From the sequence record LT907986.1: a stretch of 58,998 bases of DNA; one strand, written 5' to 3'. The first letter of the stretch is position 1; each line of letters starts with the position of its first letter. This stretch comes from Escherichia phage vB_Eco_SLUR25. Under the pieces are notes generated by a model, which was not told where the DNA came from, ran no database searches, and saw only the letters and a program-made list of their open reading frames with translations. A program made the position numbers and the translations under genes. Positions 50,580-52,759 of this stretch are shown here, piece after piece.

Positions 50580-51287
50580 ATGTCTGACATGACTCTTTTA
50601 CCTACTAATCTCGGTGGCGACGGTTTCGGTGGTGAAGCTGGTGCGGCTGGTATCGGTGGCGCGATCGGTGGCTTAATTGGTTCCTGGATCGGTAATGGTT
50701 GGGGCGGCAATGGTGGTTGGGGTGGTCGCGGTAACTTCGCTGGCCCGGTGGAAGTGCAAGCTTCTGTTGACACCAACGCAATTCTGCAAGCTATCAACAA
50801 CGGTACTCTTCAGACCATTCAGGGGCAGAACGGTACTAACCTGACTGTTGAGCGCTCCGCTGCTTCTACCTATAACGGTATTACTCAGCAGAACACTCAG
50901 AACCTACTGGCTTCCGTTCAGGGCTTTGCTGGTCTGAACACGCAAATCCAGGGCGGCACCAGCCAAGTGCTCGCGGCTCTGTGTAACAACGAAGCAGCTA
51001 ACATTACCCGCTCCTTCCAGGCTCAGTTAGAAGCTCAGAAGTGTTGCTGCGAAACCAACCTGAACATCGAGCGTCAAGCAGAAGCTACTCGTGCTCTCCT
51101 GCGCGATCAGCACGCACAGGCGCAAGCAGTTCTGATCTGTGACCTGAAATCTCAGTTGCAGGAAGCTCGCTTTGCAAACTCTCAGTTGGCACAAACGGCT
51201 GGTCTTACTTGTAAGATCAATCAGGTTGATCAGTTAGTTAACTTTAAACTGCCAACTCCTCCGACTCCTCCGACTGGCTGCTGCTAA
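50580..51287 (+). CDS. Gly-rich hypothetical protein with Cys-rich C-terminus
   Basis: ATG 50580 with GGAG RBS; N-terminal GGDGFGGEAGAAGIGG...GNGGWGGRGN; C-terminal KCCCE and PTPPTPPTGCC. Confidence 0.45.
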   Translation: MSDMTLLPTNLGGDGFGGEAGAAGIGGAIGGLIGSWIGNGWGGNGGWGGRGNFAGPVEVQASVDTNAILQAINNGTLQTIQGQNGTNLTVERSAASTYNGITQQNTQNLLASVQGFAGLNTQIQGGTSQVLAALCNNEAANITRSFQAQLEAQKCCCETNLNIERQAEATRALLRDQHAQAQAVLICDLKSQLQEARFANSQLAQTAGLTCKINQVDQLVNFKLPTPPTPPTGCC

Positions 51288-51358
51288 TCGTTGAAGTGTG
51301 GTTAAACTAAAGCGCCTTTCGCTCCTCCGCTTGGGGCGCTTTTAACAGAGGTAATATC

Positions 51359-51727
51359 ATGAGCCACATTAAAATTGCAACGATGGGAATGCCACGGGTC
51401 AAATTGCCTAAGGTTGCTTTACCTCGCATTAGCGTAGGTGAGCACCACCATGAACATGAGAAAGAGGAATATAAACATGCTCACTCTTATGCTCGAGATC
51501 ATGAACATATGGCAGCTATGTCAAATGTTCTTGACCGGATGGAAGAACCTCCGCATACGTGGGCGGCGTATCACGACAAGCCCGGCGGTATGATGTCCAT
51601 TGTTGAAATGGAATACCGCGAATTAATGGAGTGTAAGAAAGAAGGCGACCGCGCAGGGATCATGAAAGAGTTGACTGATCTTGCCGCAGCTTGTACTTGC
51701 GCTCTTCAAAAAATGAAAGATATGTAA
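51359..51727 (+). CDS. hypothetical protein with His-rich N-terminus (weak MazG-like resemblance)
   Basis: EHHHEHEKEEYKHAHSYARDHEH segment; C-terminal EMEYRELMECKKEGDRAGIMKELTDLAA loosely MazG-like. Confidence 0.35.
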   Translation: MSHIKIATMGMPRVKLPKVALPRISVGEHHHEHEKEEYKHAHSYARDHEHMAAMSNVLDRMEEPPHTWAAYHDKPGGMMSIVEMEYRELMECKKEGDRAGIMKELTDLAAACTCALQKMKDM

Positions 51728-51742
51728 GAATAGGAAGCCGAC

Positions 51743-52273
51743 ATGCAAAACGTAAACGCAGGAATGGGCGTAACCCAGTTCAACGGGATGAAACCGAAAA
51801 ACTCCATCAACATGGGCGGTGTTGATTGGACGTTACGTCGGGACGCTACCGATTCAACTACCATGTTCCCACACCAGAAGGTGAGCTGGCTTAATGCTGG
51901 ATGTGAACCTATGGGTGATGGAAGGGTTCATTACTGTTGGATTATGGGAGTGATACCGCCTACGCCGGGCACTATCGAACGACCCGTGAATGTGATGTAT
52001 GTCGGCTTCCACCAGTTCAAGATTACAATTGCTCCAAACTCCATTAGTCAATCAGATCTTGATCGTATGCATGTTTACGTCAGCGATGGTAAAGACTTCG
52101 CAGGGGATTTTATTAGTAAGTTTCTTGGTATGCAACCAGAGCAGCCTGTAGAAGCACGCGAGCATATTAGCCCGTGGCCGCCCATGATTGATCAGGAAGT
52201 GCTGCAACCAAAGACCGCTCAAACGGTCCCTCAGAAACCGGAGCAGAAGGTGAAACCAAATGACGAAGAATGA
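51743..52273 (+). CDS. hypothetical protein
   Basis: 176 aa ORF. Confidence 0.45.
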   Translation: MQNVNAGMGVTQFNGMKPKNSINMGGVDWTLRRDATDSTTMFPHQKVSWLNAGCEPMGDGRVHYCWIMGVIPPTPGTIERPVNVMYVGFHQFKITIAPNSISQSDLDRMHVYVSDGKDFAGDFISKFLGMQPEQPVEAREHISPWPPMIDQEVLQPKTAQTVPQKPEQKVKPNDEE

Positions 52274-52544
52274 AGGTATTGATAAAGTCGTTGAAGGGCT
52301 TTCTATTCGTGCTCATGTTATAGCAGACGAAGGTCATGATCAGCTCACAATTATGAAATCTGCATTCAGCGATTTTAAGTCTCTTGGAAACTTAAGCGGG
52401 TTAATGACTGTGGTGTCGACCGGAAAATTAACCCAGCAGCAAATCAGTCTGGCTCAGCGTATTGCTGTTAAAGTTATTGCGGTACTTGGGATGATTGAAG
52501 CTGAAAAGCCTAGTTCCAAGCAGGATAACGAAAGCGACCTTTAA
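52260..52544 (+). CDS. hypothetical protein
   Basis: 94 aa ORF overlapping upstream gene. Confidence 0.45.
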   Translation: MTKNEGIDKVVEGLSIRAHVIADEGHDQLTIMKSAFSDFKSLGNLSGLMTVVSTGKLTQQQISLAQRIAVKVIAVLGMIEAEKPSSKQDNESDL

Positions 52545-52555
52545 GGAGGTCTACT

Positions 52556-52759
52556 ATGTGTGGTAATACTAACCGTTGCTGTCTAGGCAGTCCTGCAACA
52601 CAAGCAGGTATACTTCAGGGGCAATTAGCTCAAGCAGCGTGTAATTGCAAAACTTTTCAACCAGTAGCGCCAACTCCTGTGTTTGTGAATGCTTTTGCAC
52701 CGCCTGTTTTCAATACTTTTGGCGTATACCCATACGGTGCTTTCTTTCGTATATTCTAA
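52556..52759 (+). CDS. small Cys-rich hypothetical protein
   Basis: 67 aa; strong RBS AAGGAGG; CCLGS...CNC motif; followed by terminator hairpin. Confidence 0.4.
   Translation: MCGNTNRCCLGSPATQAGILQGQLAQAACNCKTFQPVAPTPVFVNAFAPPVFNTFGVYPYGAFFRIF

Follow-up and report, generated by a model that had tools for sequence, protein, structure and literature searches.

The gene cassette downstream of the lateral tail fibre gene

The stretch of DNA analyzed in this work, further referred to as the window, comprises 58,998 nucleotides of Escherichia phage vB_Eco_SLUR25 (LT907986.1), and the analysis concerns five plus-strand open reading frames (ORFs), p1-p5, located at positions 50580-52759 downstream of a terminator-like hairpin of the tail fibre gene. 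We regard it as likely that p1 and p2 are the copies, in this phage, of the lysis-suppression genes of phage CSP1 (Kim and Ryu, 2025), p1 being a membrane-anchored antiholin-like protein and p2 its cofactor. The core function of the two genes is already published for a near-identical phage; what the present analysis adds is the breadth of the cassette among phages, its expression design, a weak similarity of p2 to MazG-like proteins, the lack of known relatives for the fold of p3 and the way in which the cassette is lost in collections. The region 50300-52900 is 100% identical to that of Escherichia phage vB_Eco_SLUR63 (LR025196.1; Seuratvirus, Queuovirinae), and about 20 other Seuratviruses match it at 95-99% identity. 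All genes of the p1-p5 region are labelled ‘hypothetical’ in the GenBank record, as in the other GenBank and BASEL records examined, save for the speculative labels ‘sugar-binding’, ‘pyrophosphatase’ and ‘fibre chaperone’; p1-p5 each fall into a PHROG family of their own, with no assigned function (E-values from 1e-47 to 1e-129). The features of the locus are as follows (window coordinates; aa, amino acids).

48131..50320, plus strand: lateral tail fibre gene with Pfam domains phage_tail_N and Peptidase_S74 (intramolecular chaperone, residues 569-620), 1.4e-22 and 1.7e-07
50331..50350, plus strand: intrinsic-terminator-like hairpin and T-run from the terminator scan, closing the tail-fibre transcript
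50479..50506, plus strand: sigma-70-like promoter candidate for p1, TTTACA-16-TAATAT, 9/12 (consensus match only)
50580..51287, plus strand: p1, 235 aa, orthologue of CSP1_021
51310..51343, plus strand: GC-rich hairpin and T-run between p1 and p2 (RNA folding), terminator or attenuator
51359..51727, plus strand: p2, 122 aa, orthologue of CSP1_022
51743..52273, plus strand: p3, 176 aa, orthologue of CSP1_023
52260..52544, plus strand: p4, 94 aa, fourth gene of the cassette, overlapping the end of p3
52556..52759, plus strand: p5, 67 aa, preceded by AAGGAGG, a strong ribosome-binding site
52766..52790: hairpin GGGGC-AAAC-GCCCC between an A-run and a T-run (read from the sequence), separating convergent plus- and minus-strand gene blocks

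The last hairpin, which was not listed by the terminator scan, is probably a bidirectional terminator. A first-pass annotation, made from the sequence, had reported a tail-fibre terminator followed by three genes, corresponding to p1, p2 and p5. The terminator-like hairpin is located at 50331-50350 and all three genes are real; p3 and p4, lying within the same range, had been left unmentioned.

Orthology to the lysis-suppression genes of phage CSP1

The plaques of CSP1, a Seuratvirus, are small and turbid, and cultures infected with it do not clear (Kim and Ryu, J Microbiol 2025, PMC13577005, from which all CSP1 phenotypes given here are taken). Clear-plaque variants of CSP1 arise spontaneously; in one such mutant, 4,672 bp between 14-bp repeats are deleted, with the loss of most of the tail fibre gene CSP1_020, the whole of CSP1_021 and CSP1_022, and most of CSP1_023; a CRISPR deletion of the region reproduces the clear plaques. 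Lysis suppression was restored only by CSP1_020, CSP1_021 and CSP1_022 supplied together, CSP1_023 being dispensable for complementation, and co-expression of CSP1 genes with the holin and endolysin suppresses lysis. Overexpression of the holin abolishes the suppression, as does dinitrophenol (DNP), a compound that collapses the proton motive force; a bacterial two-hybrid assay showed binding of CSP1_021 to the holin. TMHMM predicted a single transmembrane (TM) helix in CSP1_021, in the Gly-rich segment, and SignalP predicted no signal peptide. The infected cells remain unlysed and elongate. In the deletion mutant, adsorption, latent period and burst size are unchanged, and the sole visible difference of the virion is the missing fibre. 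The paper predicts no function for CSP1_021 and CSP1_022, the counterparts of p4 and p5 are outside its scope, and conservation in other phages is not discussed (the word ‘conserved’ is missing from the text).

We mapped the CSP1 gene numbers onto KY982929.1 by gene order and by the sizes of 3081, 708, 369 and 531 bp; the two 14-bp repeats, GTGCAACCGGAACA, are separated in this record by exactly 4,672 bp, each lying 130 bp within one of the two end genes. p1 is identical to CSP1_021 in 229 of 235 residues (97%), p2, encoded directly downstream, to CSP1_022 in 121 of 122 residues (99%), and p3 shares 98% identity with CSP1_023. The fibre gene of the window occupies the position of CSP1_020 and encodes the matching domain types, phage_tail_N and Peptidase_S74; according to BLASTP, only its residues 1-115 are clearly orthologous (77% identity), and the S74 region is about 25% identical. 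The lysis genes are located as follows.

28163-28600: endolysin, in the lysis cassette with the holin
28637..28981, plus strand: holin, 114 aa, about three TM segments (phrog_785), 93% identical to the CSP1 holin
28962-29438: i-spanin (phrog_89), in the lysis cassette
29296-29601: o-spanin with a lipobox, in the lysis cassette

The window locus resembles that of CSP1 in gene order, in the holin family (the 93% identity given above) and in the domain architecture of the fibre, and we infer that the holin encoded at 28637-28981 is the target of p1. A spanin or other lysis-cassette role of p1 itself was considered and dropped, as the full set of holin, endolysin, Rz and Rz1 is encoded elsewhere in the genome.

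The CSP1 experiments also bear on the earlier suggestion of a ‘fibre accessory’ function. A functional tie to the fibre holds, since the CSP1 fibre gene and the orthologues of p1 and p2 are all required for the suppression, whereas a role in fibre assembly does not, since the deletion mutant regains its fibre when CSP1_020 is expressed by itself. That p1 (with p2-p4) serves the tail fibre as an accessory or chaperone, which is what the BASEL label of the KurtStettler protein described below implies, therefore appears very improbable. Such a role would agree with the position of p1 directly behind fibre genes (of the S74 type in Seuratvirus and T5-like phages, and also in Tlsvirus), with the genetic requirement for the fibre gene and with the in-frame S74-p1 fusion in KurtStettler; however, the fibre possesses an intramolecular chaperone domain of its own, the cassette also occurs away from fibre genes, and the KurtStettler fusion resembles the deletions found in SHIN8, PLYYY01 and Seurat.

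Sequence features of p1

The start of p1 at 50580 is supported by GGAG located 8 nt upstream, by the alignment of the phrog_9288 profile (residues 1-235 of p1 to positions 1-233 of 234) and by the family-wide conservation of the N-terminal MSDMTLLP, in which M1, M4, L6 and P8 are invariant. The GenBank coding sequence, which begins at window position 50457 and spans 276 aa, is probably over-extended upstream. Gene callers seem to mis-start p1 owing to its Gly-rich N-terminus: in several T1-like phages (JakobBernoulli, Fulano1) it is annotated as a 125-aa C-terminal piece only, and tblastn gives a continuous frame in Fulano1.

The composition of p1 is as the first-pass annotation had described it (235 aa, a Gly-rich N-terminus, a CCC and the C-terminal PTPPTPPTGCC): the protein contains 32 Gly, 22 of which fall within the first 65 residues, and 8 Cys in total, with CCC at 155-157. 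Its close relatives, about 170 stand-alone proteins, all of about 230 aa, share as invariant motifs a G30xxxG34xxxG38 glycine zipper, QGFAGLN, CCCETNLNIER, ICDLK and NFKLPTPPTPP. About 125 more distant members (200-290 aa, nearly all stand-alone) were found among 1.84 billion representative proteins; they have in common an acidic N-terminal tail, a Gly-rich hydrophobic segment, QGFxGLN in one to four copies, CCC, LCDAKAKI and a Thr/Pro tail. Since the relatives are nearly all stand-alone, domain fusions offer no functional clue. CCC is near-invariant across the wider family, and the terminal GCC is missing from many orthologues.

The hydrophobic 19-mer of p1 (residues 20-38) overlaps the glycine zipper. 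The preceding N-terminal tail contains on average 2.25 Asp and Glu versus 0.21 Lys and Arg residues, and about one Arg follows the segment, which suggests an N-out, C-in topology. Neither a C-terminal hydrophobic segment nor, on reading the sequence, a lipobox was seen. AlphaFold (predicted local distance difference test, pLDDT, 57) gave a disordered N-terminus, a single helix 87-221 of low confidence, which carries CCC and ICDLK, and then the Pro-rich tail; the model was poor and was left out of fold searching. The matches of the cassette proteins in PDB and BFVD were to the family itself or non-significant. Among the latter, a ricin B match of p1 (E-value 0.27) was rejected as noise and is probably the origin of the BASEL label ‘putative sugar-binding protein’. 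The only PHROG match of p1 beyond its own family was to phrog_8119. None of p1-p5 matched a Pfam family at the curated cut-off or anything in NCBIfam and PADLOC.

Leaders of the double-glycine type have 15-25 aa with an LSxxELxxIxGG-type pattern and are accompanied by an exporter. The sole GG-ended N-terminal stretch of p1, MSDMTLLPTNLGG, has 13 aa and is devoid of the hydrophobic -4 and E -8 pattern. On reading the sequences, no signal peptide, lipobox or convincing double-glycine leader was seen, SignalP is negative for CSP1_021, and no exporter gene is annotated in the genome, so that the earlier likening of these proteins to secreted, outer-membrane-targeting or bacteriocin-like ones found no support. 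We consider it extremely unlikely that they are of this kind, or that Cys-rich p1 and p5 together with His-rich p2 form a metal-handling set. The microcin-like Gly-richness, the near-invariant CCC and the recurrent His tract of p2 (see below) would fit such functions, but the terminal GCC is not kept, no metal-binding fold was detected among the cassette proteins, and the family searches of Pfam, NCBIfam and PADLOC gave nothing of the sort.

The profile of the distant p1 relatives, and this profile only, picked influenza HA2, over its fusion peptide and long helix, with E-values of 0.003-0.07 (0.0032 at best). The match depends on residue order, as the real sequence scored 16.9 bits versus the maximum of 14.7 bits in 6,000 composition-matched shuffles. 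Both proteins have a Gly-rich, Trp-containing hydrophobic N-terminal segment followed by a long Asn/Gln-rich helix; p1 differs in having about 20 residues before the segment and in the lack of cleavage activation and of a C-terminal TM anchor. Probably, p1 and HA2 are not homologous and this is a resemblance only.

Expression architecture

The promoter candidate upstream of p1 has counterparts in the orthologous loci, where promoter-like matches of 8-11/12 end about 45-90 nt upstream of p1. The 71-nt gap between p1 and p2 is predicted to fold at -17.5 kcal/mol, and orthologous loci of different families nearly all have an equivalent hairpin at this place. The codon adaptation index (CAI) of p1, calculated with the Sharp-Li weights of the Biopython table, is 0.547, the third highest among 62 genes, compared to 0.565 for the major capsid protein and about 0.28-0.31 for p2-p5; among the cassette genes, p1 ranks first by CAI in 24 of 25 loci. 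The simplest reading of these sequence features is that p1 would be abundant and that p2-p4 would be produced in small amounts. Capsid-like CAI values (0.46-0.55) were also noted for three minus-strand early genes at window positions 4326-5129, 8764-9645 and 12269-13060 (22828-23631, 27266-28147 and 30771-31562 of the record), which suggests that they, too, may encode very abundant proteins.

A CAI on a par with that of the capsid protein could also be expected of an abundant non-essential fibrous virion protein, a whisker or decoration cross-linked by disulfides after release, for which p2-p4 would serve as assembly factors. The single long predicted helix, the richness in Cys and the number of QGFxGLN repeats, varying among relatives, agree with this idea, as does the position of p1, which closes the late structural operon or, in one phage, lies within the head module. 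We nevertheless find it improbable: the growth parameters of the CSP1 mutant are unchanged and its only visible defect, the missing fibre, is repaired by CSP1_020 alone; p1 has a predicted TM segment and its orthologue binds the holin; and among seven bands of the TLS virion gel none was assigned to p1, which is weak evidence. As the first-pass annotation had stated, none of the proteins is recognizably structural, for no structural family or fold was matched apart from the partial tail-fibre match of p3 described below, and structure prediction, which it had recommended as a check, recovered no known fold for p3. No virion proteomics for a cassette-bearing phage was found, the papers on 9g and P400 and the comparative papers on Seuratvirus being without such data; the virion proteomics of vB_EcoS-95 was set aside, as that phage is without the cassette. 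It is because of the CSP1 paper that we prefer a membrane protein to a virion fibre.

Sequence features of p2-p5

p2 contains 11 His in total and has a His-rich N-terminal tract, in which the segment pointed out earlier, EHHHEHEKEEYKHAH, is indeed present; its label ‘metal-binding-like’ is plausible. The tract is unalignable yet recurrent: 6-16 His are found in 26 of 29 listed orthologues, down to about 30% identity, and the remaining three, with two His, include a truncated copy and the orthologue of locus L043. Over its C-terminal ~60 residues, the p2 family is similar to AF_0060 (PDB 2p06), a MazG-like protein, with an E-value of 1.1e-3, and to SSO3215 (PDB 1vmg) with 0.39. The Pfam family PRA-PH reached 16.0 bits on p2, below the gathering cutoff of 21.3; PRA-PH matched 3 of 14 p2 orthologues, and MazG matched one of the 14 (3.7e-4). 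In the alignment to 2p06, p2 has E-x-x-E and E-x-x-D-like acidic positions on two helices, as do MazG-like nucleoside triphosphate (NTP) pyrophosphohydrolases; only E85 and E104 are invariant in the family, variation at E88 and D107 being seen in distant orthologues. Unlike these enzymes, p2 remains sub-threshold in Pfam, has one helical hairpin only and carries the additional His-rich tract. These similarities weakly indicate that the C-terminus of p2 may be a two-helix MazG-like domain of the all-alpha NTP pyrophosphatase-like kind.

The model of p3 shows a beta-sheet core of good confidence, two helices and an acidic tail that is disordered. Foldseek gave nothing for it in PDB (best E-value 0.3) and its own family only in BFVD, and profile searches with p3 and p4 against PDB sequences gave nothing meaningful; a match of p4 to a de novo TIM barrel was judged a likely low-complexity artefact. 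The C-terminal tail of p3 partially matches a tail-fibre PHROG (5.2e-08). This match is due to phage Seurat (KM236243, 20427-20615), whose fibre gene was joined by a deletion to p3 residues 114-176; the resulting chimera became part of that PHROG. As for p5, the length of 67 aa noted earlier is correct, whereas the seven Cys ascribed to it are actually five (positions 2, 8, 9, 29 and 31), all inside the N-terminal 31 residues; its C-terminus is Phe/Pro-rich. p5 is confined to Seuratvirus and Sashavirus/9NA-like phages.

Distribution of the cassette

The p1-p2-p3-p4 order and orientation are conserved in Tlsvirus DanielBernoulli, Edwardsiella phage eiAU and Yersinia phage vB_YenM_12. The cassette is complete in all but three of 34 IMG/VR loci found via p3, which include Nonagvirus, Sashavirus and several T1-like genera; the three exceptions are two deletions and one rearranged p1 remnant. 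Conservation and synteny in related phages, likewise recommended earlier as a check, thus extend over several phage groups. Distant p1 relatives keep p3 adjacent, often p2 and sometimes p4, some of them on contigs of 80-170 kb, and in one phage the cassette lies between the capsid and connector genes. In the T5-like Salmonella phage vaffelhjerte (locus L008, 3752-4342), the p1 homologue located directly after the S74-type lateral fibre gene is split into ORFs of 123 and 67 aa, and p2-p4 are lacking; it seems to have arrived together with a horizontally exchanged fibre module and to have decayed afterwards. The link to CSP1 gives a working annotation for roughly 180-220 phage genomes.

In an alternative reading, the delay of lysis is a side effect. 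In such a case, p1 and p3, usually with p2 and p4, would form a general module of envelope or membrane energetics, serving, for example, to exclude superinfecting phages, to block division or to remodel the membrane by means of a glycine zipper which resembles a fusion peptide and sits on a coiled coil. By stabilizing the membrane or the proton motive force, the module would incidentally hold up any holin. The adjacency of p1 and p3 even in distant relatives, on the large contigs and at the capsid-connector location, the association of the cassette with unrelated holin families, the needlessness of p3 for the CSP1 phenotype, the elongation of CSP1-infected cells and the resemblance to HA2 all speak for it. 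On the other hand, the two-hybrid contact and the restoration of lysis by holin overexpression indicate a specific holin target, and the HA2 likeness is marginal, being weaker (7.4 bits) with the close-family profile; altogether, we judge this reading unlikely.

A related and broader view, to which we assign a somewhat higher though still low probability, is that the published three-gene antiholin is one readout of a four-gene module which is much more widespread and has its core in p1 and p3. The module would control late envelope integrity or membrane energization with any holin type in many unrelated siphophages and some large phages. The third component might be the C-terminal chaperone fragment released from S74-type fibres by self-cleavage rather than the fibre itself; this would explain both why p1 often directly follows an S74 domain and the in-frame S74-p1 fusion of KurtStettler. 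This view is supported by the weakness of the hydrophobic segment, the differing fibre, the unrelated holins and the dispensability of p3.

Recurrent loss of p1 in isolates

Independent lesions of p1 were found in 8 of 25 Seuratvirus isolates examined, including all five BASEL phages; the difference between BASEL (5/5) and the others (3/20) corresponds to a hypergeometric p of about 0.001 (computed by hand). The lesions are as follows.

Seurat: fibre fused to p3 residues 114-176
SHIN8: N-terminus of the fibre fused to the last ~70 residues of p1
PLYYY01: p1 reduced to its last 75 residues
GottfriedDienst (BASEL): p1 deleted
KurtStettler (BASEL): S74 domain fused in frame to p1
WildeMaa (BASEL): p1 residues 1-90 joined to p3 from residue 65
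SeppeHuegi (BASEL): stop at codon 84, the alignment being otherwise gapless
VogelGryff (BASEL): p1 cut at about residue 182, p2-p5 gone

The KurtStettler protein bas22_0024 (locus L002, 3127-4659; 510 aa), labelled ‘putative lateral tail fiber chaperone’, consists of a second fibre segment ending in an S74-type domain and of p1 from residue ~19. It is either another deletion product or a hint that C-terminal S74 fragments and p1 cooperate. The cassette is dispensable in the laboratory. Since CSP1 yields clear-plaque variants spontaneously, the lesions likely result from the picking of clear, fast-lysing plaques at isolation, and the lysis module probably explains the frequent deletions which run in isolates from the tail fibre gene into the cassette. 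A module that makes plaques small and turbid and blocks the clearing of cultures matters in the choice of therapeutic or laboratory phages.

Proposed mechanism and comparison with known systems

Returning to the reading which we prefer, namely that p1 is an antiholin-like membrane protein assisted by p2, the following sequence of events may be proposed. p1 would be produced in large amounts from its own promoter and anchored in the inner membrane by the acidic N-terminal tail and the glycine zipper, probably N-out, C-in, so that its helix of about 135 residues with the Cys motifs would extend into the cytoplasm. The abundant p1 would then titrate or immobilize the holin. Transcription reading through the hairpin after p1 would provide lower levels of p2, p3 and p4, and p2, with its putative MazG-like helical domain and His tract, would assist p1. 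p3 and p4 belong to the same conserved cassette, to which p5 is a lineage-specific addition.

Several points weigh against this interpretation. The CSP1 support comes from a single study, with complementation, overexpression and one two-hybrid signal, and the lysis phenotype is known for CSP1 alone. The fibre of the window, which in CSP1 is a required component, differs from CSP1_020 beyond residue 115. The hydrophobic segment of p1 is weak, with a Kyte-Doolittle mean of 1.27 over 19 residues. Furthermore, none of the T1-like, Sasha-like, eiAU-like and Yersinia phages carrying the cassette occurs among the 40 listed of 84 records matching the Seuratvirus holin; holin binding is either not family-specific or not the conserved core function. 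Finally, the CSP1 phenotype does not require p3, although no other member of the cassette is linked to p1 as tightly.

As an antiholin-like protein, p1 is comparable to LydB of phage P1, a comparison made by Kim and Ryu (PMC13577005): both are proteins with a single predicted TM segment which oppose a three-TM class I holin and stay membrane-anchored. In contrast to LydB, p1 depends on two additional proteins, its gene is distant from the lysis genes, and its putative cytoplasmic part is long and coiled-coil-like. None of the libraries searched revealed sequence similarity to LydB. The CSP1 system also resembles RI and RIII of phage T4 in that holin triggering is delayed, that the delay is reversed by collapse of the proton motive force and that loss of the genes results in clear r-type plaques. 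However, RI and RIII both work singly, and RI is a signal-anchor-release (SAR) protein that is released into the periplasm; in T4, superinfection sets off lysis inhibition and the burst size increases, while the CSP1 suppression operates at low multiplicity of infection and does not raise the yield (PMC13577005). No homology to RI or RIII was found, and p1-p5 matched no lysis-category family in PHROG, Pfam (curated cut-off) or NCBIfam.

Other observations in the genome

A 154-aa protein encoded at window positions 27355-27819 (45857-46321 of the record), just upstream of the lysis cassette, matches the PHROG ‘peptidase HslV family’ (E-value 5e-32), which is unusual beside lysis genes. The first 127 bases of the window (1-127) are repeated exactly at 58872-58998. 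The window corresponds to a rotated LR025196.1 from which the last 127 bases of the record are missing, the offset being 18502 before window position ~40369 and 18629 after it; the 127-base terminal repeat looks like an assembly or circularization overlap.

The gap between the tail-tip and lateral fibre genes is the usual site of receptor-blocking exclusion proteins of the Cor/Llp type. In the window, a minus-strand gene of a 77-aa lipoprotein (47827-48060; signal peptide ending in LTAC, phrog_12984) stands alone, flanked by the J-like tail-tip gene and the gene of the lateral fibre.

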